A stretch of DNA of 64,000 nucleotides from an uncultured Acidobacteriota bacterium (GCA_963750475.1 CAVVQQ010000003.1:64958-128957); one strand, 5' to 3'; shown: positions 29,478-56,014, numbered from the stretch's first letter. Notes: a model not told the origin generated them from the letters alone. Translations and numbers: made by a program.

Positions 29478-31487
29478 GTGGCACCGACGTTTGCAACGCT
29501 AGCCGACCTCCTGCCGGAACCGATGGCGCTCGTCTCGACATCCGGGATCCTTCGCGCTGTCAATCCGGCGTTTGCCGCACTCGTCGGCGCCGACAGGACC
29601 CTGCTCGGCGGCCGGTCGCTGCTCGAGGTCGGCTGGTCGGCCGATGACTGGCCGGACTACCTGAGGCGCTGCGCGAGGACACGTTCGATGCTGCTCGGCG
29701 CCGCCACCTGTCATCGCCGGGACGGCGCCGAAATTCATTGCCGGCTTGAAGGGGCGCGATACGAGGCTCCCACCGCCAACACCGATGCCGTCGTCATGGT
29801 TCGCTTCTTCCCGCGGGAGTCGTCCTCTTCCTCGCGATTCATCACCCTCACCCAGAAGATCGACGAGCTGAACGGCGAAGTCCTGCGACGCCGGCGCGCC
29901 GAAGAGGAGGCCCGCGCTCAACGTGAGCTGCTCCACGTCACCCTGTCGAGTATCGGGGATGGCGTCATCGCCACCGATCTCGCCGGCGGCGTCACCTTCA
30001 TGAACAAGGTCGCGGAACAACTGACCGGCTGGAGCGCGGCTGAAGCCGTGCGGATGCCCGTCGGCGACGTCTTCAGGATCATCAACGAGAACTCCCGCGA
30101 GCCGGTCGAAAACCCCGTCGCCAAGGTGCTCGTCTCGGGTCACACCGTCGGCCTGGCGAACCACACGCTGCTGGTGTCCCGCGACGGCAGCGAGCGCCCG
30201 ATCGACGACAGCGGTGCGCCGATCGTCGATGCCTCGGGCCGCCTCCATGGGGTGGTGCTGGCCTTTCGCGACGTCACGGAGCTGCGAGACGTGCAGCGGC
30301 AGGAGCGCGCGGCGCGAACGGCGGCGGAGGCGGCGAGCCGCGCCAAGGACGATTTCCTGGCGACGTTGTCCCACGAGTTGCGCACGCCACTGAACGCGAT
30401 TCTCGGCTGGGCCCGCATGCTGCGGCGAGGCCTTCTCGACGACTCGCGCAAACCGCACGCGCTCGACGTGATCGAACGGAATGCCGAGATGCAGGCCCGA
30501 TTGATCGAAGACCTGCTCGATGTCTCCCGCATCGTGGTCGGACAATTGCGGCTCCACGTCGAGCCGCTCAATCTGCACGGCGTCATCGAGGCGGCCATCG
30601 ACGCCATCCGCCCGGCCGCGGAGAACAAGTCGCTACAGATATCGTCGTCGGTGCGGGTGACCTCCCCTGTGTACGGCGACGCGGCGCGGCTGCAGCAGGT
30701 GCTGTGGAATCTGCTGACGAACGCCGTCAAGTTCACCCCGGCCGGCGGTACGGTCTCACTCGACGCCGCCGAAGTGGACGATACTGTCCGCATCGTCGTG
30801 GCGGATTCGGGCGAGGGCATTCCCGCCCACTTCACCCCCCGGCTGTTCGAAATGTTCACCCAGGCCGATGCGACGTTCTCGCGGTCGCAGGGCGGTTTGG
30901 GGCTGGGCCTGGCGATCGTCAGGCGTCTCGTGGAAGCGCACGGCGGCCACGTCGCGGCCGCGAGCCGCGGGCCCGATCAGGGAGCGACCTTCACCGTGAC
31001 CTTGCCAGCCGGCCGAGGAGCTCCTGCCGAAGCGCTTCCGGCACCGGTCGGCGACGCCGCCGGCTGCCGGGGCTGCCAGGTCGTGGTGGTCGAGGATGAC
31101 CCGGATTCGGCCGAGCTCACGAAGACCCTGTTGGAGGGAGCTGGCGCCAACGTGGTCGTGTGCACGCGCGCCCGGGAAGCGCTCGCCGTGGTCGAAGGCG
31201 GCGACTTCGAGGTGCTCGTGGCCGATATCGGGCTGCCGCGTGAAGACGGCGTCTGGCTCATTCAGCAGGTTCGCAGCCTGCCGCGCGAGAGTCAGCGGAC
31301 TCTCCCTGCCGTCGCCCTGACGGCCTTCGCGAGCCCTCGGGACCGGCAGAACGCATTGGCCGCGGGCTACGACGAGCACGTGCCGAAGCCTCTCGAACTC
31401 GACACGCTCCTTCGCGCCGTCGCCCGAGTGCGAAAAAGACCGTTCGCCGAGCCCATCTCGGAAACTGGTCCTGCCCCTGGTCCGTGA
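29478..31487 (+). CDS. PAS-domain hybrid sensor histidine kinase (HisKA-HATPase-REC)
   Basis: PAS-like regions include SIGDGVIATDLAGGVTFMN. The H-box is FLATLSHELRTPLNAILGW. The N and G boxes are NLLTNAVKFTP and DSGEGI...GGLGLGLAIV. The receiver reads VVVVEDDPDSA...VLVADIGLPREDG...ALTAFA...KP. Confidence 0.9.
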   Translation: MAPTFATLADLLPEPMALVSTSGILRAVNPAFAALVGADRTLLGGRSLLEVGWSADDWPDYLRRCARTRSMLLGAATCHRRDGAEIHCRLEGARYEAPTANTDAVVMVRFFPRESSSSSRFITLTQKIDELNGEVLRRRRAEEEARAQRELLHVTLSSIGDGVIATDLAGGVTFMNKVAEQLTGWSAAEAVRMPVGDVFRIINENSREPVENPVAKVLVSGHTVGLANHTLLVSRDGSERPIDDSGAPIVDASGRLHGVVLAFRDVTELRDVQRQERAARTAAEAASRAKDDFLATLSHELRTPLNAILGWARMLRRGLLDDSRKPHALDVIERNAEMQARLIEDLLDVSRIVVGQLRLHVEPLNLHGVIEAAIDAIRPAAENKSLQISSSVRVTSPVYGDAARLQQVLWNLLTNAVKFTPAGGTVSLDAAEVDDTVRIVVADSGEGIPAHFTPRLFEMFTQADATFSRSQGGLGLGLAIVRRLVEAHGGHVAAASRGPDQGATFTVTLPAGRGAPAEALPAPVGDAAGCRGCQVVVVEDDPDSAELTKTLLEGAGANVVVCTRAREALAVVEGGDFEVLVADIGLPREDGVWLIQQVRSLPRESQRTLPAVALTAFASPRDRQNALAAGYDEHVPKPLELDTLLRAVARVRKRPFAEPISETGPAPGP

Positions 31488-31490
31488 CGC

Positions 31491-32993
31491 TCAGCGCTTG
31501 ATTGGCGTGTCGTCGGCCTTCAGGTCTCCGAGCACGTACTGCATCCCGGCGAGGATGTGCTCGAGTATCGGCCGCACGGCGTAGATCCGCTCGCTGTGGC
31601 CGAGCGCCTCGTAGAACACGCGCCCCTGTCCTTCGCGGCGAATCCAGCTCAGTCCGAAGTCGTGATCGGGGCGCGGATGCTCTTCGAGCGCCCGGTCCGC
31701 GGGGCTCATCTTCGCGTAGTCGATGCTCGTCAGCACGCGGACGTTGTCCCGCGACCACGACTGGACGCCCATCGTGTAGATCTCGTCGCGGATGTCGAAG
31801 GCTCCGCTCTTGAACATCGCGGTCAGCGGGCTCGCCGGATCGTCGATCTTCACCGTGATCTTCTGCGGGTCGAGCCAGTGGAACTTGAAGTAGCCGCCGA
31901 TCATCCGGTTGAAGTCGGGCCACGTGCCTGTCTGGGTGTCCGGCCCCTGCGCGACCGCCGGCGCCGCGGCCCCAGCCGGCTGGGGAATCATCAGCGCGAA
32001 CAGCGCGAAATCAGCCTGCGTGAGCCGGCCGGTGCGGGCGGTGTCGAGCGCCTGGAACCATGCGTCGCTGATCGCGTCGAGCTCGGCGCGATCGAGCCGC
32101 TGGTCGTGGTTGCGATCGCCCTGGGTCATCATCACCGGGGCGATCGAGGCGCCGGCGGAGAACGAGCCCAGGAGGGCCGCGATACCGCCGCCCGCCGCCG
32201 GCGGCGCGCTGTCCTGGTGATACGAATCGCTGGCCGCGTGGATGCCGGCCAGTCCCTTGCCGCCGCGCACGAACTCGAGCAGCGCCTGGCGGCGCGCCGC
32301 CGTGGCGGCGGCGTCGTTCGGGTCGTCCAGGAACGCGCCGGTGGTGCTGGCCAGAAACACCGCGTCGTACTGTTTGAGATTGGCGGCGTTGATGTCGGCC
32401 GCATCGAACGAAATCGTCGTCGACCAGGCGCCGGTCTTGGCGCCGAGCGCCTCGATCGTTTTCGCCGCGAGCGGAATGGAGGAGTGCACGAAGCCGGCGG
32501 CTTTGGCCAGGACCAGGACCTTGCGCGGGTGCAGCGGACGGGCGGGAGCGCGGTCGGGCAGCGCTGCGCGCATGGCCTCGACCGTCGCCGGCTGCGGCGT
32601 CTGCGGCTGGCCGCCCCGCCCGCCCATGTTGAACGCGGCGGCGAGGCCGGAAGCCGGCATCGCGGCGGAGAGCGCGGTGGTGAGCTGTTCCTGCGTGACC
32701 GAGCCGGTCGCGGCCGCATCGGCGGCGGTGAACCACCGGCCGGCGGCGGCCTTGAGCTCGCCGCGCGAGAGGACCCCGTCCTTGTCGGCATCAGCCGCCA
32801 GGAAGACGAGCGTCGACGACAGCAGTCCGTTGAGGCTCGCGCTGCTGGCGAGCGCCGGGGGCGCGGTGCGCGCTCCGCCCGGAGCACCCGCCGGCGCCGG
32901 TGTCGCGTTCCGCTCCTGGGAGACGGCAACCGCCGCCGTGGCCGCGAACATCGCGGCAGCGCCGCCGCAGAGAAACCAGCGAGTGAGGGTCAT
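31491..32993 (-). CDS. Secreted ThuA-domain protein carrying EF-hand-like calcium-binding motifs
   Basis: The likely start is ATG 32993 (MTLTRWFLCGGAAAMFAATAAVA). The ThuA-like core includes KVLVLAKAAGFVHSSIP, YDAVFLASTTG, GKGLAGIHAASDSY and GRVFYEALGHSE. The EF-hand loops are DADKDGVLSRGEL and DRNHDQRLDRAEL. Confidence 0.75.
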   Translation of the reverse strand: MTLTRWFLCGGAAAMFAATAAVAVSQERNATPAPAGAPGGARTAPPALASSASLNGLLSSTLVFLAADADKDGVLSRGELKAAAGRWFTAADAAATGSVTQEQLTTALSAAMPASGLAAAFNMGGRGGQPQTPQPATVEAMRAALPDRAPARPLHPRKVLVLAKAAGFVHSSIPLAAKTIEALGAKTGAWSTTISFDAADINAANLKQYDAVFLASTTGAFLDDPNDAAATAARRQALLEFVRGGKGLAGIHAASDSYHQDSAPPAAGGGIAALLGSFSAGASIAPVMMTQGDRNHDQRLDRAELDAISDAWFQALDTARTGRLTQADFALFALMIPQPAGAAAPAVAQGPDTQTGTWPDFNRMIGGYFKFHWLDPQKITVKIDDPASPLTAMFKSGAFDIRDEIYTMGVQSWSRDNVRVLTSIDYAKMSPADRALEEHPRPDHDFGLSWIRREGQGRVFYEALGHSERIYAVRPILEHILAGMQYVLGDLKADDTPIKR

Positions 32994-33071
32994 GGTTCTT
33001 TTCCAGTCGGAGAAGACTTCAGACGTCCTCACCGTCGCCAGCAGCAACCGCCGCGCCGGCTTCACTGCCGC

Positions 33072-34443: not shown

Positions 34444-36337
34444 ATGAACCGCAAACCGCTGATCCTTCTTGGCGTCGCCGCCGCACTGCTCACGTTCGCC
34501 GGCACCGCGCTGACCGCCGCGCGGCCGCCGGCCGGCGACTATCTCGAGAGCGATCAAACGGCGGCCGCCGCCCCGGCGCCGGCCGCGGCCGCGCCGGCCC
34601 AGCCCGCCGCCGCCACGCCGGCCCAGCCCGCCGCCGCCACGCCGGCCGCGGACAAGCCGTATGTCGAGGCCGAGTACCCGGCGCTTCCCCGTCGTCGGCA
34701 GCCGCGTCGCCATCTGGATGGTCGCGCAGCTCCATCTGCTGTTCGCGGCGTTCGTTCTCGCGGTGCCGATCTTCGCCTTCATCGTCGAGGCGATCGGCTA
34801 CAAGACCGGCGACATGCGCTACGACCGGCTCGCCCATGAGTTCACGAAGCTGCTGTCGGTCTCCTTCTCGCTGACCGCGACCTTCGGGGCGGCGCTGACG
34901 TTCATGCTGATCATCCTGTACCCGAAGTTCACCAACTACATGATGAGCGTGTTCTCGCCGACCTTCCTGCCCTACGTCCTGCTCTTCTTCGCCGAGGCGT
35001 TCTTCCTCTACACCTACTACTACGGCTGGGGGAAGTTCCATCCGCTGGTCCATCTCGGACTCGGGCTCGGCCTCAACATCGTCGGCACCAGCATCATGCT
35101 GATCGCCAACGCCTGGCTGACCTTCATGATGTCGCCGCGCGGCGTGTCGAGCACCGGGCGCCGTCCTCTCGGTGCGGGAGGCGGTCTACAACTACACCTG
35201 GATGCCGATCAACGTGCACCGCATCATCGCCAACGTCGCCTTCGGGGGATCGATCGCGGCCGCGTACGCGGCGTTCAAGTTCCTCCAGGCGACCACCGAC
35301 GAGGAGCGCGCGCACTACGACTGGATGGGCTACATCGGCAACTTCGTCGCGATCAGCGCCTTCCTGCCGCTGCCGTTTGCCGGCTACTGGCTCGCCAAGG
35401 AGATCTACGCCTACTCGCAGACGCTCGGCCTGCACGATGATGGGCGGGGCGTTCTCGTGGCTGTTCATCATCCAGGCCGTGCTGATTGGCAATCTGTTCC
35501 TCGCCGCCAACTACTATCTCTGGCTCGGCATGGGGCGCGTCGACGGGGTCGCAGCCGCTGCAGCGCTTCATCAAGTATCTGCTCGCCGGGATCACGCTCT
35601 GCTTCATGGTCTGGGCGACGCCGCGATCGATCATCGCGACCGTGTCCGAGCTCCGGGCGATGGGCGGGTCGTCGCACCCGGTCCTCGGCTACCTCGGCGT
35701 CATGTCGGCGAAGAACACCGCCGTGAACATCCTGATCCTCACGACCTTCATGAGCTTTCTCCTCTATCGCCGGACCGGCAAGGTCGCCGCCGTGGCGTGG
35801 GCGAAGAAGGGGCACGCGGCGCAGCTCGCGATCTTCGCCGGCGTCGCCGTCTTCGTCGTCTTTCTCGGCGTCTACGGCTACTTCGTCGAGGCGACGGTCC
35901 GCATCAAGCTGTCGGTGCCGCAGGTCCTCTCGGTCCTGTTCGCGATGGTGGCGATCACCGCCATCGACCTGTTCCTGTTCCGCGGCGCGCGCAAGACCGG
36001 CGAAGTGCGCTGGGGCCGGATTCCGGCGATCTCGCAGTACGTGCTGATCTTCATCGCCGTCACCTTCACCTGGCTGATGGGGCTGATGGGCTACGTCCGC
36101 TCCGGGCTGCGCCAGCACTGGCACGTCTACGGCGTGATCCGCGACAAGTCCGCCGACGCCTTCACGCCGACGCTCGGCTTCGCGACGAAAGTCGTCTCGG
36201 TGACCGTGCTGCTGTTCTTCCTGCTGATCGCCGTCGTGTTCTGGATCGCGAGCCTGCACGACCGGCCCGACTTCGACCGGGGACAGACCGCTCGTGACGC
36301 CGCTCGTCCCTGGACCGCGGCGCAGCGAGCATCATGA
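34444..36337 (+). pseudogene. Cytochrome bd-family subunit I (CydA)-like membrane protein with about 13-14 hydrophobic helices, carrying four frame changes as sequenced
   Basis: Fragments from ORFs 34444.., 34661.., 35172.., 35377.. and 35486..36337 join into one protein. The first join reads ...KPYVEAEYPA|FPVVGSRVAIWMVAQLHLLFAAFVLAVPIF. This is followed by ...ANAWLTFMMSPRG..|GAVLSVREAVYNYTWMPINVHRIIANVAFGG. Next comes ...YAYSQTLGL|TMMGGAFSWLFIIQAVLIGNLF...LWLGMGR|..SQPLQRFIKYLLAGITL... The shifts lie at about 34685, 35155, 35433 and 35545. The helix-1 His motif (QLHLLF) resembles CydA. The stop overlaps the next start (ATGA at 36334). Confidence 0.75.
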
Positions 36338-36879
36338 GGATCCCGCACATCGTCCGCATCGCCGCGCTCGTCTTCGCGACGACCGGGTTCTATGCCTACG
36401 TCGGCCAGATGGTGCCGCAGAAGGAAGTCCAGCCTCCGCAGGAGACCGGCCATGGGCGGCGACCTGAGCCACCGCCGAGCTGGCCAAGATCGGCCGCGAG
36501 ATCATGGAGGGCAAAGGCTTCTGCCTGACCTGCCACACCATCGGCAAGACCGGCGCGCTCCGGTTTCCCGACCTCGCCGGGGTCGATGTCCGCGCCAAGA
36601 CCCGCGTCCCGGGGCTGAGCGATGTCGAGTACTTCGCCCAGTCGATGTACGAACCGACCGCCTACATCGTGCGAAGGCTTTCCCCCGGCGATGCCGCCCA
36701 TCAACAAGCCGCCGATTGGTCTGACCGACGAGGAGATCCTCTCCGTGATCGCGTACCTGCAGACGCTTGGCGGCACCGCGACCGTCACCCTGCAGACGAA
36801 ACATCACTACAACAGCGGACCCGCCGCGGGCGGGACGCCGCCGCCGGCCGCCGCGCCGCCGAAGGGGACGCAGCCATGA
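36334..36879 (+). pseudogene. Membrane-anchored monohaem c-type cytochrome, with two or more frame changes as sequenced
   Basis: The N-terminal anchor is MRIPHIVRIAALVFATTGFYAYVGQMVP. It is followed by ...TAELAKIGREIMEGKGFCLTCHTIGKTGALRFPDL...SDVEYFAQSMYEPTAYIV|EGFPPAMPPINKPPIGLTDEEILSVIAYLQTLGG. The haem motif is CLTCH, and MPP provides a distal Met. The shifts lie at about 36440-36470 and about 36672. The stop overlaps the next start (ATGA at 36876). Confidence 0.7.
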
Positions 36880-37695
36880 AGATCGCCGTCCTCGTCGCCA
36901 TCCTCGCAGTCTTCGCGCTGCTGCGGTTCCGGCGCGCGAACCTGCTGCTGTGGGCCGGCGCCTGGTGGATCGGGATCTACGTGCTGCTCCGCTTCGGCTT
37001 CACCGCGCCGATTCCCTCCTCCGTCGTCACGCTCTACATGGGCATCATTTCGATTGCCCTGCTCGCCTACGTCTCCTCCAGCGAGGTACGCCGCGACGAG
37101 GTCTCGGGTCCGCTGGTCAGGTTCATGACCGACAAGCGCTACACGGTCCTCCTCGGCGTCGCCATCGTCGCCATCCCGGCGCTCGCCGCCGCCAATGTCT
37201 ACGTCCAGATGAGCGTCCCGCTGCAGCCGCCGCTGTTCTCGCGCACGGTCCATCCCGCGTCGCCGTCCGAGATCACGGTCCACGACAAGAAGGTCGAGCT
37301 CGACGCCGGCGAGAACCCGTTCCGCCGCCTCGAGACGTCGAACCCGGCCGAGTTCCGCACCCACGTCGAGAACGGACGCCGCGTCTTCTACCGGAACTGC
37401 GTGTTCTGCCACGGCGACAATCTCTCCGGCAACGGCATGTTCGTCCACGGACTCGATCCGATCCCGACCAACTTCACCGACAAAGGGACGATCGCGATGC
37501 TGCGCGAGACCTACCTGTTCTGGCGGATTTCCAAGGGGGGACCCGGGCTGCCGGAGGAGGGCGGGCCGTGGGCTTCGGCGATGCCGGCCTGGGAGAAGTT
37601 CCTGAAGGAAGACGAGATCTGGGATGTCGTCCTCTTTCTCTACGACTATACCGGCCAGCGGCCCCGCGCGAAGGAGGAGGGGGCGAAGCCGATGA
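36876..37695 (+). CDS. Polytopic membrane-anchored monohaem c-type cytochrome (3' boundary unresolved)
   Basis: The start is ATG 36876. About four hydrophobic helices begin MKIAVLVAILAVFALL.... The soluble domain carries CVFCHGDNLSGNG...MPAWEKFLKEDEIWDVVLFLYDY. No stop exists in this frame before 38078. A TGA in the adjacent frame at 37693 overlaps a well-placed ATG 37692 (GGAGGAGGGGG upstream). I therefore place the end near 37695, assuming one more indel. Confidence 0.6.
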
Positions 37696-39414
37696 CGATC
37701 CCCTGGACGCCTGGTGGTCATGGTGGCGGCGCTCTGGGCCGCGCCGGGAGGATCGATGCGCGTGGCGGCGCAGGACGTCGGCACCGAGGCCCAGCGCGAG
37801 TCGGGCCGGAAGCTGTATCTCAAATCCTGCTCGCAGTGCCACGGCGAAAAAGGGGACGGCGAAGGATACGCCGCCCCGCATCTGCGTCCGCGGCCGCGGA
37901 ATTTCACGACCGGCAAGTTCAAGATCCGGACCACGGCAAACGGCGCGCTGCCGACGCATCAGGACCTGGTCAACATCATCAGACGGGGAATGCCGTACAC
38001 CTCGATGCCAGCCTGGCCGAGCCTTGCCGATCAGGAAGTGTCGGATCTCGCGTACTTCATCACCACTTTCTCACCTGACTTCGCCAAGCCCGAGAACGCT
38101 CCCAAGCCGGTGCCGCTTCCCGGCGCGCCGAAGGCGACGACGGAGTCTGTAGCGCTCGGAAAGAAGCTCTACGAGGAGAGCGGCTGCGTGAAGTGCCACG
38201 GCGCGCTCGGCCGCGGTGACGGGCCGTCGGCGCCGACCCTGATGGACGACTGGGGGCACCCGATCCGCGCCGCCGATCTGGCGCAGAGCTGGACCCTGCG
38301 GGGCGGATCTTCCCGCGAAGACATTTTCCGGACGATGAGCACGGGGCTGAACGGCACGCCGATGCCGTCGTTTCTCGAAGCGCTGACGCCGGAGCAGCGC
38401 TGGGCGATCACCGATTTCATCGTCTCGCTCTCGGGCGGCGACGGCCCTGGCTACGCCAATCTGGTCATCGCCAGGCACGTGAAGACGCCGATCGATCTCG
38501 GCAAAGGCGCCGCGAGCTTTGCTGACGCGCCGGTCGCACGGTTTCCGGTCGTCGGCCAGATCATGGAGCCGGGACGATCGTTCCATCCGCCGGCGACGAG
38601 CGTCGCCGTCCAGGCGGTCTACGACGCCGACTCGATCGCCCTGCTGGTGCGCTGGCACGACATGAGCGCGGAAAAGTCCGGGAAGAACGGGCCGTCGCTG
38701 CCGGTGCCGGCAGAGGAAGAGGAGGAGCCGGCGGCGGCCGCGGCGGCGGGCGAGGGGAGCAGTGCGGGCGGCTTCGGCGACGCGGAGGTCGCGGCGACGC
38801 CGGCCGGACAGGCGCCGGCGCCCGCCGCGGACCCCTTCGCCGAGGCCGTCCGCGCCAGCTGCGCCGCCATCCGAGTTCTCCGACGCTGTCGCGATCCAGG
38901 TGCCTTCGCAGGCCCTCGACCGGTGCGCGCAAGCCGTACTTCCTCTTCGGCGACGGCGAGAACCCGGTCGATCTCTGGTTCTTCGATCTGGCCGGCGCGG
39001 CGCCGCTGCAGTTCACCGGGCGGGGCAGCGGGGCCGTCGACAGCCGCCGCCGCGACCGATGTCACCGGAACCGCGAGCTACGACCAGGGGGAATGGTCGG
39101 TCATTTTCAAGCGGCCCCTGCGCGCCGGCGCGCGGCGCTCCGTTCTCGCCCGGGAGAGTTCGTGCCGATCGCCTTCTCGGTGTGGGACGGCTTCTCGCGC
39201 GAGCGCGGCAACAGGCGCGGCCTCACGACCTGGTACTCCCTCTATGTCGAGCCGGCAGTGGTGCCCTCGCCCGATCGGCCCGATGGTGAGGACGGCGGTG
39301 ATCATTCTGGTCATCGAGCTGGCGGTGATCGGCTGGGTGCGCAGGCGCTACGGATCGCGCGACCAAGGAAAGCTCGGCGCGGCGCCGAGCCACCCGGCAG
39401 CGACCGGCGCGTGA
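37692..39414 (+). pseudogene. Dihaem c-type cytochrome fused to an EB_dh (ethylbenzene-dehydrogenase gamma / DOMON-like haem-binding) domain with a C-terminal membrane anchor, carrying about seven frame changes as sequenced
   Basis: The haem motifs are CSQCH and CVKCH (ORF 37714..). The EB_dh-like segment is spread over all three frames. It reads ...SVAVQAVYDADSIALLVRWHD... / PSEFSDAVAIQVPSQAL / KPYFLFGDGENPVDLWFFDLAG..LQFTGRGSGAV / TGTASYDQGEWSVIFKRPLRAG / APFSPG / EFVPIAFSVWDGFSRERGNRRGLTTWYSLYVEPAVVPSP / IGPMVRTAVIILVIELAVIGWV. The shifts lie at about 37705, 38860, 38928, 39040, 39130, 39155 and 39260. Confidence 0.7.
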
Positions 39415-39510
39415 GCGCGCCGGGAGCGAGCGACGTGAACCGCCGCCGCCCCAGGGCGGCCGGGGCCGGCCAGGGCGGCGGGACGAAGTCCGCCGATGAA
39501 AAGAGGACCC

Positions 39511-41620
39511 ATGTACAAGAGCATCTACGTTCCCGTCGATAACTCAGACCACTCCAACCGCGCCGTCGCCTGCGCCGTCGGGCTGGGCAAGGCGTATTCG
39601 GCGAAGCTGGTCGGCTGCCATGTCTACGCCGCCAAGCTGCACGACTACCGCTTCAGGCAGATGGAGTACACGCTGCCCGAGGAGTACATCGACGAGGTCG
39701 AGCTCGAGCGGCAGCGGAAGATCCACGACAGCCTGATCACGATGGGCCTCAAGCTGATCTCCGACAGCTATCTCGACGGCATGTCGCGGCTGTGCGGAGA
39801 GTCGGGCCTCGAGTTCGAGCCGCGGATGATGGACGGGAAACATCACATCGAGATCCTCAAGGACCTCGCCGGCTCGGCGCACGATCTGGTGGTGCTCGGC
39901 GCGCTGGGAATCGGCCGCGCCCGCGACAGCGTGATCGGCTCGGTCTGCGAACGGGTCGCCCGCGAGGCCGATCGCGATGTCTGGGTCGTCAAGCACGTCC
40001 CGGAGCCGGGCGAGGCGGACCGGGACACCATCCTGGTCGGCGTCGACGGCAGCCCGCAGTCGTTCGGCGCGCTGATGACGGCCTCGATCTGGCCCGCACC
40101 TTCGGCAAGAAGGTCGAAGCGATCGCCGTCTACGATCCCTACCTGCATTACTCGGTCTTCAACGGCATCGTCGGCGTCCTCACCGAGCAGGCGGCGAAGG
40201 TCTTCCGCTTCGAGGAGCAGAACCAGCTCCACGAGGAGATCATCGACACCGGGCTGGCGCAGATCTACCAGTCGCACCTCGAAGTGGGCGAGCGGATGGC
40301 GAGCGAGGCGGGCGTCGAGATCAAGAAGACGCTTCTCGACGGCAAGCCTTTCCAGAAAATTCTCGACCACGCGCGCAAGACCAACCCGTGGCTGATCGTC
40401 GTCGGGCGGATCGGCGTGCACAGCCCGAAGGACGAGACCGGGCTGGGGAGCAACACGGAGAACATTCTCCGCGCCGCGCCCTGCGATGTCCTCCTGTCGA
40501 CGCGCCTCGAGGTGCCGCGCCTCGACGTGCGCGCCGAGGAGACGGTGCGGTGGACGCCCGAAGCCGAGGAGCGGATGACGCACGTGCCCGAGCAGGTCAA
40601 GGGGATCGCCCGCACCGGCGTCCTCCGGCTGGCGCTCGAGAAGGGGCATTCGGTGGTCACGAGCGCGGTGATTGACGAAGCGATGGATCGGTTCATGCCG
40701 AAGAGCGCTTCGGCGGCGACCAAGGCGCTGGCCGAGGCGGTCGCGCTCGAGCGGGCGAAGGCGGGCCCGGTCTCGATGTGCCGGGCCTGCGGCGTCACTG
40801 CCACGCAGAGCGGCGCCGGTGCGGTGCATCGTCTGCGGCGCCGACCGACTTCGAAGTGATCTCGCGCGAGATGATCGAGAAGATCGCCGAGGTCGAGGGC
40901 GGGCTCCAGGAGGAGACGACCTACGACGGGCGCAAGCTGCGGTGGTCGGAGGACGCCCGGAAGGGCCTGTGGACGATGAAGAACGCCTATCAGCGGCGCC
41001 GCACCAAGGCGCGCGTCGAGAAGCGCGCGCGCATGAAGAAGCTCGACGCGATCACGCTCGATTTCGCCCGCGAGGTGATCGAGGAGGAGACGGGCACGCC
41101 GCTCGACATCGTGGCTCAGGGGGCCTTGACCTCGTCGGCCGCCACATCGGCGTCGCCCGCCGGGACGCCCGCGTCGGGCTCCGCGCCGGCGCCAGCGGCC
41201 TCTGACGGCGTGAAGCTGGTGGCCCGCGACGAGCGGAAGAACCCGCTGATCTCGATCTTCGACTGGACCGACGAGGCGACGCAGCGGATCTTCCGCGTCC
41301 CGGCCGGCTTCATGCGCAGCCAGACGCAGGAGCGGATCGAGGCGCTCGCGCACGAACGCGCCGCGGCTGGCGGCACTGGCGAAGCCGGAGTGGTGATCGA
41401 TCTGGCGCTCGTCGAGGACGGGATCGAGATCGGCAAACGGATGATGGCCGAGATGATCGCGAACTACCCGTCAGCGGGCCAGGGGCACGAGAAGGCGGCG
41501 CCCGCTGCAGCGGGTCACTCCTCCTCGGCGTCGACCGCGCCCGCACAGGAAGCGCCGGCCGTGAACGGGAGCGGCTACCTCAACGAAGTGAGCGCGCTCT
41601 CGGCGCGGCGCGTCGAGTGA
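39511..41620 (+). pseudogene. Multidomain protein: tandem universal-stress (Usp) domains, a CxxC...CxxC zinc-ribbon and three PCP_red-like domains, with three frame changes as sequenced
   Basis: The start is probably ATG 39511 (MYKSIYVPVDNSDHS). Usp1 is ...LVVLGALGIGR...SVCERVAREADRDVWVV. Usp2 is ILVGVDGSPQSFGALMT|GLDLARTFGKKVEAIAVYDP...LIVVGRIGVHS...GSNTENILRAAPCDVLL. The PCP_red-like units are VRWTPEAEERMTHVPEQVKGIARTGVLRLALEKGH, LRWSEDARKGLWTMKNAYQRRRTKARVEKRARMK and FDWTDEATQRIFRVPAGFMRSQTQERIEALAHER. The zinc ribbon is MCRACG...RCIVCGA. The shifts lie at about 40080, 40815 and 40838. Confidence 0.7.
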
Positions 41621-41742
41621 CTTCATCAGCGCGTAGCAAGCGTCCGTGGAGCGAACCACGTCGGCAGGGTCAGGCTGGCGCGCCAGCGGCGCGCCGCGCC
41701 GGAGCGGAGCGGGGCGCAGGGGCCCCCGCGAGCGACGGCGAG

Positions 41743-41768
41743 GGGGGGCCGGCGGGGCGAAGCCCCCC
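41743..41768 (+). terminator. GC-rich hairpin followed by an A/T-rich tract (weak terminator candidate)
   Basis: The stem GGGGGGC pairs with GCCCCCC across a 12-nt loop (cggcggggcgaa), and the hairpin is followed by GGTAAATAAAT. It sits between the Usp/PCP_red gene and the GNAT gene. There is no canonical U-tract. Confidence 0.25.
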
Positions 41769-41777
41769 GGTAAATAA

Positions 41778-42654
41778 ATGTCCGCCTACCGGTTCTGTCG
41801 CTCGGACGACATCGGCCTGCTCGTCGATGCGCTGAATCGCTGCTGGTCGCCGTCTTTTCCCGACGAGCCGGCGATGACGCCGGCCGCGTTCAAGCGATCG
41901 ATCCGCGACCTTCAGGTCTGGTGCAGCAGCTGCATGGTCGCCTTCGCGGGCTCCGATCCGATCGGCGTCCTGATCGGCGCCAAGCGGCCGTCCGGAACCC
42001 TCGTCCACAAGATCGCCGTTCATCCGGAGCATCAGCGCCAGGGCCATGCTCGCCACATGCTCGATTCGCTCGGCGTCGAAGCTCGCGATTCTCGGCCCGC
42101 CGCGAATCAGCGCCGAAGTGCCGGAAGCCCTCGTGCCTGCCTGCGGCGGGCTGTTGCGCGCCAGCGGATTCGTCCAGGAAGCGCGCCTGACCGACTACGT
42201 ACTGCAGCATGACAATCGCGGCGATGATGAGGCCGCAGGCATTCCCGCCGGCCGGTTCGTCATCCCGGTGACCCTTGACGATCTCGCCGCCAATGGCCTC
42301 TCCGCCGAGGCTGATACCCAGGTCTGCTGGGAGCGCGCGGTCGACACCCTCATCGCGCGGAAGGAGGAGATTGCCGGGCTCGCCGTCGCCTCGGACGAGC
42401 GAATCGAGGCCTGCCTGCTGTACGTGACGCACGGGGCGGCGGCGGAGATTGTCTCGCTGCGTACCTTCATCGACGATGGCGGAGCTCGTGTGAAGCAGCT
42501 GCTCTCACGACTCGGCGCCCGGGGAATCGGCACGTTCCGCTTCCCGAAAGTGCGCCCGCCGGAAATCTCCGAGGACTGGCTCGAGACGCTCGGCTTCCGC
42601 CCCGCTGGCGGGCATCGACTTTACGCGACGACGGCGCGATCGGACCATGCGTAA
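41778..42654 (+). pseudogene. GNAT-family N-acetyltransferase (two-lobed), with one frame change as sequenced
   Basis: ORF 41778.. and ORF 42046..42654 join at ...VHKIAVHPEHQRQGHARHMLDSL|..SKLAILGPPRISAEV... (shift about 42065-42075). HQRQGHARHM fits GNAT motif A (Q/R-x-x-G-x-A/G). Confidence 0.6.
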
Positions 42655-42693
42655 GCTGGCGATTGTTCGAACGACGGCAGTCCCGGGCAGGAA

Positions 42694-43658
42694 ATGAAAA
42701 CCTACAGCGACATCGTTGGCGACGGCGGGTCCAGGGTGCTCGAGCAGGTGGCCGAGCAGCGCGCCCGCATCACGGACGGGCTCGCCGGAGTGCGCCATCT
42801 CGTTGCCGTCGGCTCCGGCAAGGGGGGCGTCGGCAAGAGCACCCTGACGCTCCATCTCGCCGGTGCCCTGCGCGCCCGGGGACTGCGCGTCGGGATCCTC
42901 GACGCCGACTTCAACGGTCCGTCGCAGGCGCGCATGGCCGGCGTCCAGGAAGGGCTGTTCGTTCCAGGCCGCGACAAGGTGGCGCTGCCGCGAACGAAGA
43001 ACGGCATCCCGGTCTTCTCGATGGGCTCGATGATCCCGGAGTCGGAGGCGCTCGAGTTCGAGAGCACGGCGCCCGGCGAGTCGCAGACCTGGCGCGCCAC
43101 CCGGGAGTTCGCGCTCCTCGGCGAAATCCTCGGGGCCTTCGAGTGGGGCGCGCTCGATCTGCTGATGTTCGATCTGCCGCCCGGGAGCCGAGCGGACCGT
43201 CCAGTACGCCGACTTTCTCGGGCCGCGGACCTCGTTCCTGCTCGTCACCATCCCCTCGGAGGTATCGCGAGGCGTGGTCGCGCGCTCGGTGGCGGCGCTG
43301 GCGAAGGGACCCAACCGGGTCCTCGGCTACGTCGAGAACATGAGCGGCTACTACTGCCGCGACTGTAACGCCGTCAAGCCGCTGTTTGCCTCGGCTGGAT
43401 CCGAGGATGCGGCAGGCGGCGCCGTCCCGCCGACCTCGCGCCAATCCCGGCTCGAGATTCCCTGCCTCGGAACCGTCCCTTTCGATCCCGAGCTGGCACG
43501 GTCACTGCGATACAGGGCTGCCGCTCGCGGACGTCCCCGACAGCCCGGTTGGCCGGGCCCTGGAGCGCGTCGCGCAGCAGCTTCTGGACAGCCTCGAATC
43601 TCCTCCGCCTCCGCTCCCGCTCCGCGCGAGCTTCGGCTCGGCAAGGAGCTCGCGATGA
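42694..43658 (+). pseudogene. Mrp/NBP35 (ApbC)-family iron-sulfur cluster carrier ATPase, with two frame changes as sequenced
   Basis: The deviant Walker A is VAVGSGKGGVGKSTLT. Further segments are ILDADFNGPS, DLLMFDLPPG|AERTVQYADFLGPRTSFLLVTIPSEVS, and the CxxC motif in ENMSGYYCRDCN. The protein continues ...GTVPFDPELAR|..CDTGLPLADVPDSPVGRALERVAQQL. The shifts lie at about 43185 and 43500. The stop overlaps the next start (ATGA at 43655). Confidence 0.85.
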
Positions 43659-44144
43659 AGTTCCTCTGTGTCCCCTGCGACAGTCCGATGAAGCTGCAGA
43701 CCGTCGAGCCCGCCCGAGGGCGGCTCGCTGTCGGTCGTCTATGCCTGTCCCGAGTGCGGCTACGAGATGGCGATGCTGACCAACGCCGTACGAGACGCAG
43801 CTCGTTCAGTCGCTCGGCGTGCGCATCGGGCCCGACATCGCCGGCGGAGCGCTGGCCGGGGCAGCGGCCGAGCCTGGCAAGTGTCCGTTCCCCGGGATGA
43901 TCTCGTCCGCGGCCCCGCAGCCCACAGGCGCCAACGGGGCGACGGAGGAAGGGCGCCCCGGGCCAGACCGACGATCCGAGCCCGGTCCGCTGGACCGACG
44001 CCGCCGAGGCCCGGCTCGCGAACATTCCCGCCTTCGTGCGGCCGATGGCGCGGACCGGCATCGAGAGGTACGCGCGCGAGAGAGGGGTCGCAGGAAGTGG
44101 ACGAGACCATCCTCGACGCGGCCCGCGACTTCTTCGGCATGTAG
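43655..44144 (+). pseudogene. Small zinc-ribbon plus PCP_red-domain protein, with four frame changes as sequenced
   Basis: The sequence reads MKFLCVPCDSPMKLQTVEP|..GGSLSVVYACPECGYEMAMLTN|..YETQLVQSLGVRIGPDIAGG...KCPFPGM...|VRWTDAAEARLANIPAFVRPMARTGIERYARERGV|.EVDETILDAARDFFGM. Successive pieces lie in frames 2, 0, 1, 2, 0 (position mod 3). All four shifts are +1, at about 43712, 43788, 43955 and 44092. Confidence 0.6.
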
Positions 44145-44207
44145 GCTGCGTTCCTGCGCGAGTCCACACGGATCTGCGCGGATTTGCACGGATTGACACC
44201 GGTCTGA

Positions 44208-45671
44208 ATGGCTGCACCGATGAACGCGACCCCGTTCGCCCGACCGTACGTCATCTCCTGGAACCTCACCTACCGCTGCAACCTTGCCTGCGAGCACTGC
44301 TATCTCGACGCCGGCGGCGCGCCACAGGTCGGCACCGAGAACTTCGCCGATCGGAGCGAGCTCGGCACCGAGGAATGCTTCAGGGTGATCGACGACATCG
44401 CCGCGTTCGCGCCCGAATGCGTGACGATCCTGACCGGCGGCGAGCCGCTCCTGCGCCGCGACATCCTCGAGATCGTCCAGCGCGCCGCGGAGCGCGGGCT
44501 CTGGGTCGTCGTCGGCACCAACGGCGTGCGCATCACGGAGAACCGTGGCGAAGCGACTGGCCGATGCCGGCGCGCGCGGCCTCTCGCTCTCTCTCGACGC
44601 GCTCGATCCCGATCGCCACGACCGGTTCAGGAACGTGCGCGGCGCCTGGCGGAACACGGTCGAGGGTGCGGAGATCCTCAACCGGACCGGGCTCCCCTTC
44701 ATCGTCCAGACGACCGCGGGCTCGCACAATCTCGGCGAGCTCGACGCCATCGCCGACTTCGCGCACGACCGCCTTGCCGCGAAGGTCTGGAACCTCTACT
44801 TCCTCGTACCGACCGGGCGCGGCCAGTTCGTCTCCGACATCACCCCGGCGCAGTACGACGACGTGCTGGCGTCGCTCTACCGGATCCAGCGGAAGTACGA
44901 CCGCCGGATGCTGGTCAACGCGAAGTGCGCACCGCACTACATCAAGACCGTACTCGAGCGCGCCCGCGGCCTGGGCGAGGGGCCGGAGGGTAGTCCCGCG
45001 GAGCGGGACCCCCGAGCGAGCGGCGGTGGCACCCGCGAGCACCGGAGGATGCCGGGCAGGCTCCCGGCCCGCCCTCGATCAGGACCTACTCCGGAGGGGC
45101 CGGTGGATGCCCGGCGGGAACGCACTACATGGGGATACGGCCGAACGGCGATGTCACCCCCTGCCCGTATCTGCCGGTCTTCGCGGGTACCCTTCGCAGC
45201 GCCAGTCTGCGGACCTGTGGACATCATCGGCGCTGTTTGCCGACATCCGCCGCCGCACCGCGCTCGGCGGCCGCTGCGGGGCGTGCGAGATGAACGGCCA
45301 CTGCGGCGGCTGCCGCGCCCGGGCGTACGGGATGACCGGCGATGTGATGGCCGAGGATCCACTCTGCACCCACATCCCCGGCACGTTCGCCGGCTCGCCG
45401 CTGCTGGCAGTCCGCGGCGCGTCCCCGGCGCCGGTCGGGCGGGACGAAGCGCCGGCCAGTGCGGGAGATCCAGTACGGTCCCGAATCGCCTCGGGCGATT
45501 GCGTGGGACGATGCCGCGGCGGCGCGCATGAAGAGGATCCCGGTGTTCGTCAGGGGCATGGTCACCACGGCCGTAGAGGAGTCCTGCCGCAAGAGCGGCC
45601 TCGACCGCGTCACCGTCGAGGAGCTCGACCGCATCCGCGCGCGGATGCCGACCCCGAAGATTTTCGGGTGA
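44208..45671 (+). pseudogene. Radical SAM / SPASM-domain enzyme (AhbD/NirJ-like tetrapyrrole-modifying type) with a C-terminal PCP_red domain, carrying five or more frame changes as sequenced
   Basis: The radical SAM cluster motif is NLTYRCNLACEHCY. Further segments are ILTGGEPLLRRDI, VVVGTNGVRITEN|.AKRLADAGARGLSLSLDALDPDRHDRFRN and ...VWNLYFLVPTGRG...NAKCAPHY. The SPASM-like part is GCPAGTHYMGIRPNGDVTPCPYLP...LWTSSALFADIRRR...GRCGACEMNGHCGGCRARAY...DPLC. The final domain is IAWDDAAAARMKRIPVFVRGMVTTAVEESCRKSGLDRVTVEELD (ORF 45459..45671). The shifts lie at about 44540, 44960-45100, 45198 and 45455. Confidence 0.8.
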
Positions 45672-54236: not shown

Positions 54237-56014
54237 TCAGGCCTCGAACTGCGGCGAGAAGTCCTTCGCCGCGCCGGGAACGCTGTACTCGTAGGGCCCG
54301 CGGTAGCGCTTCCGGCGGCGACGAGCGAAATTGCCGTGCGGCGGCGGCGACGGCGCCGCCCACTCGAGCGTGGTCGCCTGCCACGGGTTGGCGCCGACCT
54401 TCTCTCCCTTCCGGATGCTCCAGAAGAAATTGAAGATGAACGGAAGCTGGAACAGCGCCATGATCCACGCGCCCCACGACGACACGACGTTCAGGTGGCA
54501 GCACCGGCTGCGCGAACGCGTAGCTGCGCGCCGCCGTCGTACAGCCGCCGCGAGATGCCGGCCAGCCCGACGATGAACATCGGCATGAAGATGACGTTCA
54601 TGCAGACGAGCGAGCCGCAGAAATGGATCTTGCCGAGCGTCTCGTTCATCATCCGGCCGGTGGCCTTCGGGAACCAGTAGTAGATCGCCGGCGAACAGCG
54701 CGAAGATCGTCCCCGGCGCGACGACGTAGTGGAAGTGGGCGATGACGTAGTAGGTGTCGTGCAGCGTGGATGTCGGCGACGTTCAGGCCGAGCGGCAGCC
54801 CGGTCAGCCCGCCGATGCCGAACATCGGCAGGAACGCCAGCGCGAACAGCATCGGCGTGTTGAAGCGGATCGACCCGCCCCACAGCGAGATGATCAGCGC
54901 CGTCAGGATCACGACCGACGGGATCGAGATGATCATCGTCGTCGTCTGGAAGAACGCCGCCATCGCCGTGCCCATGCCGGTCATGAACATGTGGTGCGCC
55001 CAGACGATGAACGACATGAAGCCGAGGAAGACGACCGAGTAGACCATCGAGCGGTAGCCCCACAGCGGCTTGCGCGTGTTGTTGGCGATGATCTCGGCGA
55101 CGATGCCCATCGCCGGCAGGATCAGGACGTAGACCTCGGGGTGCGCGAGGAACCAGAACAGGTGCTGCCAGAGCAGCGGGTTGCCGCCGCCGGCGCGCGG
55201 TCAGGACCTGGCCGCTGACGACCAGGCCGCTCGGCAGGAAGAAGCTGGTGCCGGCGAGCCGATCCATCAGCTGCATGATCGCCGCCGCTTCGAGCGGCGG
55301 GAAGGCCAGCAGCAGCAGGAACGCGGTGACGAACTGCGCCCAGACGAAGAACGGCAACCGCATGAACGTCAGCCCCTTGGCGCGCAGCTGGACGATCGTG
55401 ACGATGAAGTTGACCGCGCCGAGCAGCGACGAGGTGATCAGGAAGACCATGCCGACGAGCCAGATCGTCTGGCCCGGCGCCGGCGATGATCGACGAGCGG
55501 CGGATACGAGGTCCAGCCGCGACTGCGCCGCGCCGCCGGGCGACGACGAAGCTGGCCAGCATCATCACGCCGCCGAGGAAGATAGAACCAGTAGCTCGCC
55601 ATGTTCAGCCGCGGGAACGCCATGTCCGGGGCGCCGATCTGGAGCGGCAGGACGAAGTTGCCGAAGCCGCCGACGGCGAGCGGCACGACGCCGAGGAACA
55701 CCATGATCGTGCCGTGCATCGCCCCGAGCTGGTTGTAGAACTCGGGCAGCATCATGCCGCCCGGCATGCGCGCCTCGCCGAGGAGCCTGCCGAGCAGCGG
55801 CAGCGGCGCACCCGGATAGGCGAGCTGCCAGCGCATCAGCATCATCAGCGAGAAGCCGAAGAGCAGGAACAGCAGCCCGGTGACGGCGTACTGGATGCCG
55901 ATGACCTTGTGGTCGGTGGAGAAGACGTAGCTGCCACCAGAAGCCCAGCGGCTCATGGGTGGCGTCGTGCGCGACGTGCGGCCTGGGTACGGCGACAGCA
56001 GCGGGGTCACTCAT
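54237..56014 (-). pseudogene. ctaD: Cytochrome c oxidase subunit I (A-family haem-copper oxidase), with about ten frame changes as sequenced
   Basis: The protein is assembled from ORFs 55565..56014, 55438..56010, 55122..55568, 54491..55450, 54649..55110 and 54237..54485. Segments are MSDPAAVAVPRPHVAHDATHEPLGFWW|.YVFSTDHKVIGIQY, then ...MHGTIMVFLGVVP and ...GWTSYPPL.... These are followed by [26 protein letters not shown] and ...FIVWAHHMF. The series ends with ...[15 protein letters not shown], ...[10 protein letters not shown] and ...[21 protein letters not shown]. All six canonical His ligand contexts are recognisable. Confidence 0.9.

Follow-up and report, generated by a model that had tools for sequence, protein, structure and literature searches.

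We analyzed a 64-kb stretch of DNA from an uncultured Acidobacteriota bacterium (GCA_963750475.1, CAVVQQ010000003.1:64958-128957), hereafter the window, in which one co-directional block on the + strand (34444-41655) encodes a CydA-like membrane protein, two monohaem cytochromes c (cyt c1 and cyt c2), a fusion of a dihaem cytochrome c with an EB_dh-fold domain, and a Usp-PCP_red protein. The first four genes almost certainly belong to a known module, the "bd-like oxidase + two cytochromes c + alt_NxrC" set. Coordinates are those of the whole window unless a locus label is given; L002 and L083-L091 denote loci of relatives, and L002 carries an intact syntenic operon. The features of the block are listed here together with the evidence that defines them.

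34444-36337, + strand: CydA-like (cytochrome bd-like, OR-N2 type) membrane protein of ~630 amino acids (PF01654, L002 alignment, signature residues)
36334-36879, + strand: cyt c1, a membrane-anchored monohaem class I cytochrome c (PF00034, L002 alignment)
36876 to ~37695, + strand: cyt c2, four N-terminal hydrophobic helices followed by a C-terminal monohaem cytochrome c domain (PF13442, L002 alignment)
~37692-39414, + strand: the fusion (alt_NxrC type), with a signal peptide, a dihaem cytochrome c, an EB_dh-fold domain, and a C-terminal transmembrane helix (Pfam, L002 alignment)
37783-38436, + strand: dihaem cytochrome c module of the fusion (phmmer and Foldseek matches to 6H5L_B)
38449-39254, + strand: EB_dh-fold (EbdC/NxrC-like, DOMON-related) beta-sandwich domain of the fusion (PF09459, matches to 2IVF_C and 7B04_C, Foldseek)
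38707-38844, + strand: acidic Glu/Ala/Pro-rich low-complexity insertion inside the EB_dh-fold domain (low predicted local distance difference test (pLDDT) values, length variation)
39283-39339, + strand: C-terminal transmembrane anchor of the fusion (hydropathy 2.35; helix in the AlphaFold2 (AF2) model, P0084 residues 514-543)
39511-41655, + strand: Usp-PCP_red protein of ~720 amino acids, a conserved downstream neighbour (80% identity to the 724-residue L002 protein)

The three cytochrome genes (36334-39414) contain exactly four CxxCH haem-binding motifs, CLTCH (36522-36536), CVFCH (37398-37412), CSQCH (37828-37842), and CVKCH (38185-38199), which lie where an earlier prediction made from the sequence of the window (the original prediction) had placed them. 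Each is followed by a Met-Pro motif, the usual kind of distal-ligand supplier (starting at 36688, 37575, 37996, and 38353), and each falls inside a Pfam-significant cytochrome c domain, as befits class I cytochromes. On sequences stitched across the frameshifts described below, as for all Pfam scores unless stated otherwise, cyt c1 scored 29.1 bits (PF00034), cyt c2 37.1 bits (PF13442), and the fusion 92.7 bits (PF00034, in two stretches) and 73.9 bits (PF13442); the profile search for EB_dh and Cytochrom_C that had been proposed along with the prediction returned all three corrected proteins above significance. Cyt c1 and cyt c2 share 80% and 83% identity with L002 proteins of 171 and 271 residues, respectively. 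Judged by hydropathy only, cyt c1 has one N-terminal hydrophobic segment (an anchor at 36349-36405), cyt c2 has four N-terminal segments, and the fusion has a signal peptide and a C-terminal helix (39283-39339), in agreement with the proposal that all three proteins are membrane anchored. Kustd1711 (7ZS0_A), the dihaem cytochrome encoded in the nxr cluster of Kuenenia, with haems that titrate at ~+350 mV (PMC11791136), is matched over its N-terminal haem domain by the L002 orthologue of cyt c1 (E 2e-27).

With the frames corrected, ATGA start/stop overlaps are found at all three junctions (36334-36337, 36876-36879, and 37692-37695) of these genes, which the original prediction had called translationally coupled; in the intact L002 operon the overlaps measure 4, 1, and 4 nucleotides. 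The fusion probably starts at the ATG at 37692, and we doubt the listed GTG start at 37714 because frameshifts break the open reading frame (ORF) of the fusion. We infer that the true stop of cyt c2 is the TGA at 37693-37695, reached after an extra G in the GGGGG run at ~37679-37683.

The fusion matches the EB_dh family (PF09459) over positions 7-234 of the 236-position profile with 64.2 bits, against a gathering cut-off of 33.3, and an unstitched six-frame search still gave 35.1 bits. It shares 78% identity with an intact 559-residue orthologue (P0084, from L002). A homologue search with the stitched sequence returned more than 4,000 matches, and the 120 listed (73-81% identity) are nearly all single ORFs of 535-600 residues (two are of ~850 residues) that all carry PF09459, PF13442, and PF00034; the best 80 genomic loci derive almost entirely from Vicinamibacterales or other Acidobacteriota metagenome-assembled genomes (MAGs). 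Because the homologues are single ORFs carrying all three domains, the EB_dh stretch and the dihaem part are one protein and not two ORFs, which disposes of the concern that the EB_dh-like stretch might be a separate, unrelated ORF.

To describe the fold, we used an AF2 model of P0084 built on a diverse alignment (pLDDT 87.5, predicted TM-score 0.83). In Foldseek searches, residues ~35-250 of the model match Kuenenia Kustc0457 (6H5L_B) with a TM-score of 0.93, a root-mean-square deviation (rmsd) of 1.2 Å, and 40% identity, and phmmer relates the dihaem module to the same chain with E 4.9e-51. Residues ~255-510 match EbdC (2IVF_C, TM-score 0.79, E 8e-16) and the C subunit of nitrite oxidoreductase (NXR-C, 7B04_C, TM-score 0.64), the next matches of this part being haem-free CBM9 modules; phmmer connects the EB_dh domain to 2IVF_C with E 5.6e-9 and also to 7B04_C. 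Foldseek also recovers QcrC, a dihaem cytochrome cc. The predicted joining of a dihaem cytochrome c to an EB_dh-like domain is borne out by both the Pfam and the structural matches. The Glu/Ala/Pro insertion differs in length among homologues and is predicted to be disordered, with 10-residue block means of pLDDT at ~49-64 over P0084 residues 331-380 and stretches below 50.

EbdC binds haem b through a Met and a Lys (PMC8840923), and the original prediction had taken the domain of the fusion to be of the same haem-b type. We located the columns of EbdC Met108 and Lys201 by pairwise phmmer alignment to 2IVF_C and 7B04_C and by a profile built from 128 diverse fusions. The pairwise and profile alignments agree that the Met108 column holds Phe (codon 38946-38948) and the Lys201 column Arg (codon 39216-39218). 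The Phe lies in a P-Y-F-[IL]-F-G-D motif with the same six-residue spacing to a conserved Pro-Val as in EbdC and NXR-C, and the Arg is the second Arg of G-N-R-R-G-L. Among 118 close homologues Arg495 is invariant and Phe406 is at least 90% conserved. Of 120 diverse dihaem-EB_dh fusions, 73 have Met in the Met column, 24 have Leu, and ~15 have Phe; none has Lys in the Lys column, where His, Ala, Ser, and Cys occur as well. Met/Gly (27) is the commonest pair class, followed by Met/Arg (20), Leu/Arg (12), Phe/Arg (11), Met/Met (10), and Leu/Met (10). Since both outgroups and most clades have Met, the Phe would most simply be a derived loss. A clade-specific Met327 was considered as a replacement ligand and is unsupported, as independent Phe-type lineages have Arg at that position.

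On these alignments, canonical Met/Lys ligation is absent from the EB_dh domain. The domain is probably haem-free; binding of a haem through non-canonical ligands is possible, though we favor it less, and canonical binding appears highly improbable. Because the Met/Lys ligands are replaced by Phe/Arg, the haem-b-type reading fails the ligand check that accompanied the original prediction and the label "haem-b domain" is unproven, and we advise against annotating these fusion proteins as "DMSO reductase family type II haem b subunit" (DMSO, dimethyl sulfoxide).

The first gene of the block encodes a protein that shares 81% identity with an intact 640-residue L002 orthologue. PF01654 (78 bits) matches its N-terminal third only (profile positions 2-241 of 418), and solved CydA chains align only over residues 83-287, which span helices 1-5. 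Hydropathy analysis of the intact orthologue indicates ~14 hydrophobic segments, and the protein has an N-terminal anchor, an Ala/Pro-rich linker, and ~13 further helices. The Q-loop is absent from the CydA-like protein, and cydB is absent from the operon. The OR-N2 signature can be identified as His98, Tyr178-x6-Glu185-x6-Tyr192-x-Tyr194, and His259; the corresponding reference residues are H99, Y183, E190, Y197, Y199, and H269 (Suppl. Table 6, 10.1101/2021.01.16.426971). These residues were mapped by motif spacing, with the Tyr-Glu-Tyr-x-Tyr block at exactly the reference spacing and the two His displaced by a few residues (indels). The signature residues, together with His204, His411, and His560, are invariant across four distant clades, as are the bd active-site His and the equivalents of His186 and Glu107.

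The association of this protein with the cytochrome trio is strict. The CydA-like, cyt c1, and cyt c2 genes occur in the same order in all 76 loci with enough upstream flank among the 80 closest, and a CydA-like gene lies within 5 kb in 10 of 10 diverse contexts drawn from other clades and phyla; in every context seen, the neighbours of the EB_dh protein are a CydA-like protein and cytochromes c. Of 401 Acidobacteriota genomes sampled evenly, 32 contain the C-terminal part of the CydA-like protein that is specific to OR-N2, and 50 contain an EB_dh-like match. In each of the 32 OR-N2 carriers the EB_dh match lies within ~5 kb on the same contig, and none of the 401 genomes has the CydA-like gene without an EB_dh match; the 18 EB_dh-only genomes give weak matches (E 1e-6 to 1e-11). 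The sampled genomes are related to one another, and these counts are descriptive, not a test. They address the co-occurrence with CydA-like genes that the original prediction had singled out as a check. The module is widespread in MAGs of Acidobacteriota, Gemmatimonadota, Myxococcota, and Chloroflexota and is patchy even at the level of the order: it is missing from several complete genomes of that order and from one of the same family. An apparent cytochrome trio without a CydA-like gene in L086 and L091 was rejected, as the 757-residue product of a neighbouring gene is itself CydA-like (BLASTP E 7e-103, PF01654 44 bits); this protein is divergent and has no precomputed Pfam match.

Taken together, the strict linkage, the three anchored cytochromes, the high-potential Kuenenia homologue of cyt c1, the lost Q-loop, and the preserved active-site His and Glu lead us to lean modestly towards a cytochrome c-dependent, bd-type terminal oxidase, for which we infer the assembly of the subunits, the direction of electron flow, and O2 as the acceptor. 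In this model, the three cytochromes would be periplasm-facing, membrane-anchored subunits of a four-subunit respiratory complex whose core is the 14-helix CydA-like protein. A high-potential periplasmic donor would reduce four c-haems, of which cyt c1 and cyt c2 carry one each and the fusion two; these would pass electrons to b-type haems at His98 and His259 of the CydA-like subunit, and this subunit, lacking the quinol-binding Q-loop, would reduce O2. The EB_dh-fold domain, anchored by its own C-terminal helix, would act as a periplasmic docking or scaffold element and would not carry haem b through a canonical Met/Lys pair; haem b is probably absent from the domain in this lineage or held there by other ligands. 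The dedicated periplasmic electron wire of the original prediction is retained as a plausible functional proposal.

Several points weigh against the proposed oxidase. To our knowledge, no member of the module has been purified and O2 reduction is unproven for any OR-N2 protein. The equivalent of the proton-channel residue Glu99 is Tyr in the CydA-like protein. The absence of haem from the EB_dh domain rests on two alignment columns, and the domain is strongly conserved, so that it may bind a cofactor by other means. The copy in the window carries ~20 frameshifts, and the genome already holds four COX1 genes. Furthermore, an A-type haem-copper oxidase operon, often with SCO1, lies within 7 kb of the module in 6 of the 10 diverse contexts (L083, L086-L089, and L091), and two loci of one lineage encode an EB_dh protein fused to COX3, a COX3 domain being present in 3 of the 120 listed homologues. 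In these two loci (L086:7001-9400 and L091:7001-9388), a C-terminal COX3 domain replaces the single transmembrane anchor of the dihaem-EB_dh protein, and the fused gene is followed by COX4, COX2, COX1, a cytochrome c, and a second COX3, with the divergent CydA-like gene upstream. The COX neighbourhoods and COX3 fusions fit a complex that feeds another oxidase at least as well as one that reduces O2 itself.

The COX3 fusions and the conserved COX/SCO1 neighbourhoods suggest an arrangement in which the cytochrome trio and the bd-like protein would form a physical supercomplex with a haem-copper oxidase, the EbdC-like domain having lost haem b in this acidobacterial lineage and serving as a haem-free docking domain; the module would constitute a widespread, NXR-independent respiratory adaptor. 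We entertain this arrangement tentatively. If it is true, the adaptor would work in abundant soil bacteria as a cytochrome-c-fed bd-type O2 reductase or, alternatively, as a complex III of a new kind.

A rather unlikely alternative is that the module is not an oxidase and resembles either complex III or the alternative complex III (ACIII), the CydA-like protein exchanging electrons with the quinone pool via a new site in its extra helices and the cytochrome trio relaying them to a neighbouring haem-copper oxidase, or, in the reverse direction, carrying electrons from periplasmic donors to quinone. The same oxidase operons and COX3 fusions (L086, L091) speak for it, as does the recovery by Foldseek of QcrC, which wires complex III to complex IV in actinobacterial supercomplexes, and the same idea was raised earlier for Nitrospina and Nitrospira (PMC6606698, PMC3578206). 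However, the known quinol-binding residues and the Q-loop are all missing, the bd active-site His and Glu stay invariant, and no haem-copper oxidase lies within 8 kb of the module in the window or in L002, the nearest COX1 fragments being ~15 kb away. The genome also leaves no gap for such a module to fill: it contains cytochrome b and an ACIII ActD/NrfD set that adjoins COX1 (G000:C2:867755-875212) in the classical ACIII-caa3 manner, apart from the module, and a role as substitute for a missing complex III is therefore not supported. A genome search found one EB_dh locus, one CydA-like gene, and no canonical CydA.

The proposed oxidase presupposes a functional operon, and the frames of the block are broken. 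We aligned the L002 proteins to the window by frameshift-aware dynamic programming. The alignment requires single-base insertions at four positions in the body of the CydA-like gene, three in cyt c1, six in the fusion, and four in the Usp gene, with two further, uncertain corrections in the unaligned C-terminal tail of the CydA-like gene; two more insertions, in the GGGGG run and in a CCCC run, are inferred at the cyt c2/fusion junction. The fusion gene carries at least seven. About ten single-base insertions thus fall in the three cytochrome genes (36334-39414), and roughly 20 frame breaks in 34.4-41.7 kb. Cyt c2 is open over 36876-37691 without a frameshift, and the other genes of the block are not open as written. 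Nearly every break is one extra G or C; neither in-frame stops nor a deletion bias was found in the frameshifted block in this alignment, and amino-acid identity to orthologues is 78-83% in every fragment. The assembly comprises 5.24 Mb in three contigs with a completeness of only 57%, and a COX1 gene ~15 kb downstream (54533-55902, - strand; G000:C3:119490-120859) is likewise split into five fragments, one with two TGA codons inside.

Because the insertions are single G or C bases, in-frame stops are lacking, identity is even, completeness is 57%, and COX1 is shattered as well, the breaks are most likely consensus errors of an indel-rich long-read assembly, and we take the operon to be functional. 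A decaying pseudogene cluster with real frameshifts would explain why ~20 breaks crowd into 7.2 kb while upstream ORFs of 669 and 524 residues stay open, but we consider it very improbable: the breaks are nearly all single extra G or C bases with neither in-frame stops nor deletion bias, orthologue identity stays at 78-83% in all fragments, fragmentation of the same kind affects other genes of the contig, COX1 among them, and 5.2 Mb in three contigs at 57% completeness is typical of an indel-rich long-read consensus. The two open ORFs (29478-33065), which lie beside the frameshifted 7 kb, encode a 669-residue hybrid histidine kinase and a 524-residue ThuA/EF-hand protein. The contig's errors are distributed very unevenly, which may stem from mixed strains or from low coverage over a conserved operon.

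The remaining alternative, a role of the fusion as an alternative gamma subunit, that is, as anchor and haem-b acceptor for a type II molybdoenzyme such as NXR, as proposed for alt_NxrC in nitrite oxidizers (PMC6606698), matches the architecture described for alt_NxrC_2 of Nitrospira moscoviensis and the closeness of the EB_dh fold to EbdC and NXR-C, but is very improbable in this organism, as the genome contains no type II DMSO-reductase alpha subunit (best TIGR03479 match 53 bits, cut-off 985) and no second EB_dh gene, the Met/Lys pair that receives electrons from the beta subunit in EbdC is Phe/Arg, and the module is widespread in MAGs of the four phyla named above. By the same TIGR03479 search, the module does not co-occur with NxrAB in this genome.

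Downstream of the fusion, a Usp-PCP_red gene and a GNAT-like gene are found in nearly all of the 80 closest loci that include downstream flank, and the Usp-PCP_red gene is also present in the distant contexts L083, L084, L085, L088, and L091. Usp-PCP_red and radical SAM-SPASM-PCP_red genes accompany the module in the window (39511-45531) and in relatives (L083:1-3658, L085:9094-11753, L088:15215-, and L091:14343-), which suggests that the PCP_red genes form a cofactor-maturation or regulatory set tied to the oxidase-like complex. In one clade (L084:273-2672), the CydA-like protein (799 residues) carries its own C-terminal cytochrome c domain, and Usp-PCP_red lies between it and the cytochrome trio. 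Genes of the copper-chaperone type (NosL, SCO1/SenC) also recur beside the module (L090:6264-7502, L085:8494-9084, L087:2223-3146, and L089:757-1407) and bring to mind an old proposal that certain bd-like oxidases contain a copper site; His411 and His560 of the CydA-like protein, as noted, are invariant.

In nitrite oxidizers, anammox bacteria, and manganese oxidizers, the bd-like/alt_NxrC module ranks with the most highly expressed respiratory gene sets that are biochemically uncharacterized, and its role has so far been argued mostly via nitrite oxidation. The present analysis shows that the module is common in soil Acidobacteriota without NXR, where it is always linked to the CydA-like protein and often stands beside haem-copper oxidases. 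This linkage, the oxidase neighbours, and the poorly conserved presumed haem-b ligands shift the question away from an "NXR anchor".

The four-gene cluster itself is not new, contrary to what the original prediction had implied, and has been published under several names. The alt_NxrC_2 protein of N. moscoviensis is described as having a signal peptide, one transmembrane helix, a dihaem cytochrome c, and a mass of 66.8 kDa, and its cluster, which is conserved in Nitrospina and anammox bacteria, is among the 40 most transcribed genes (PMC6606698, Mundinger et al. 2019). The same cluster has been reported with a 14-helix bd-like protein without quinol-binding residues (PMC3578206, Lücker et al. 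2013), as TO_1 of Ca. Manganitrophus, the most highly expressed terminal-oxidase candidate there (bioRxiv 10.1101/2021.11.15.468770), and as the OR-N2 operon (Murali, Gennis & Hemp 2021, supplement, 10.1101/2021.01.16.426971). Compared with these clusters (Nitrospira bd-like_3/alt_NxrC_2, Nitrospina, Kuenenia nxr), the block in the window has four matching gene types, a 14-helix CydA homologue without Q-loop or CydB but with the OR-N2 signature residues, and a cyt c1 homologous to Kustd1711. The fusion shares with alt_NxrC a signal peptide, two CxxCH motifs, EB_dh, and a C-terminal transmembrane helix, the Nitrospira protein being compared by its description; support for orthology is indirect, through Kuenenia Kustd1711. 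The block differs from the known clusters in that its host is a Vicinamibacterales acidobacterium without NXR, its first cytochrome is monohaem (171 residues) and not dihaem, the EB_dh ligand columns are Phe/Arg, and Usp-PCP_red and GNAT genes follow downstream instead of nxr genes.

The EB_dh domain of the fusion shares with EbdC (2IVF_C) and Kuenenia NXR-C (7B04_C) the beta-sandwich fold and motifs near PV-x-x-W-x-W and AF-x-VW-x-G. Those proteins, however, are soluble subunits of Mo-bisMGD (molybdenum bis(molybdopterin guanine dinucleotide)) enzymes that hold haem b via Met/Lys (PMC8840923), whereas the domain described here is joined to two c-haem domains and a transmembrane anchor, has no molybdoenzyme partner, and carries Phe/Arg in the ligand columns together with a disordered acidic insertion. 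Similarly, the N-terminal 210 residues of the fusion are 40% identical to Kustc0457 (6H5L_B) and superimpose on it with an rmsd of 1.2 Å, both CxxCH sites included, yet Kustc0457 belongs, as a free-standing soluble subunit, to an octahaem reductase complex, where it partners Kustc0458, which resembles hydroxylamine oxidoreductase (HAO-like), while the module in the window heads a membrane-anchored fusion beside a bd-like protein.

When the CydA-like protein is compared with canonical CydAB (6RKO, 5DOQ), the first four to five helices align, and the haem-ligand His and one channel Glu are kept; the CydA-like protein differs in lacking the Q-loop and CydB, in having five extra helices, and in that cytochromes c replace quinol as the presumed electron partner. 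Finally, membrane-tethered class I c-haem domains, with weak structural and sequence matches, link the cytochromes to ActE of ACIII and QcrC of actinobacterial III2IV2. ActE and QcrC wire one membrane complex to a haem-copper oxidase, and the module described here often neighbours COX operons in relatives; in contrast to their systems, its operon contains neither NrfD/ActB/ActC nor Rieske/cytochrome b, the ACIII and cytochrome b genes lying elsewhere in the genome.

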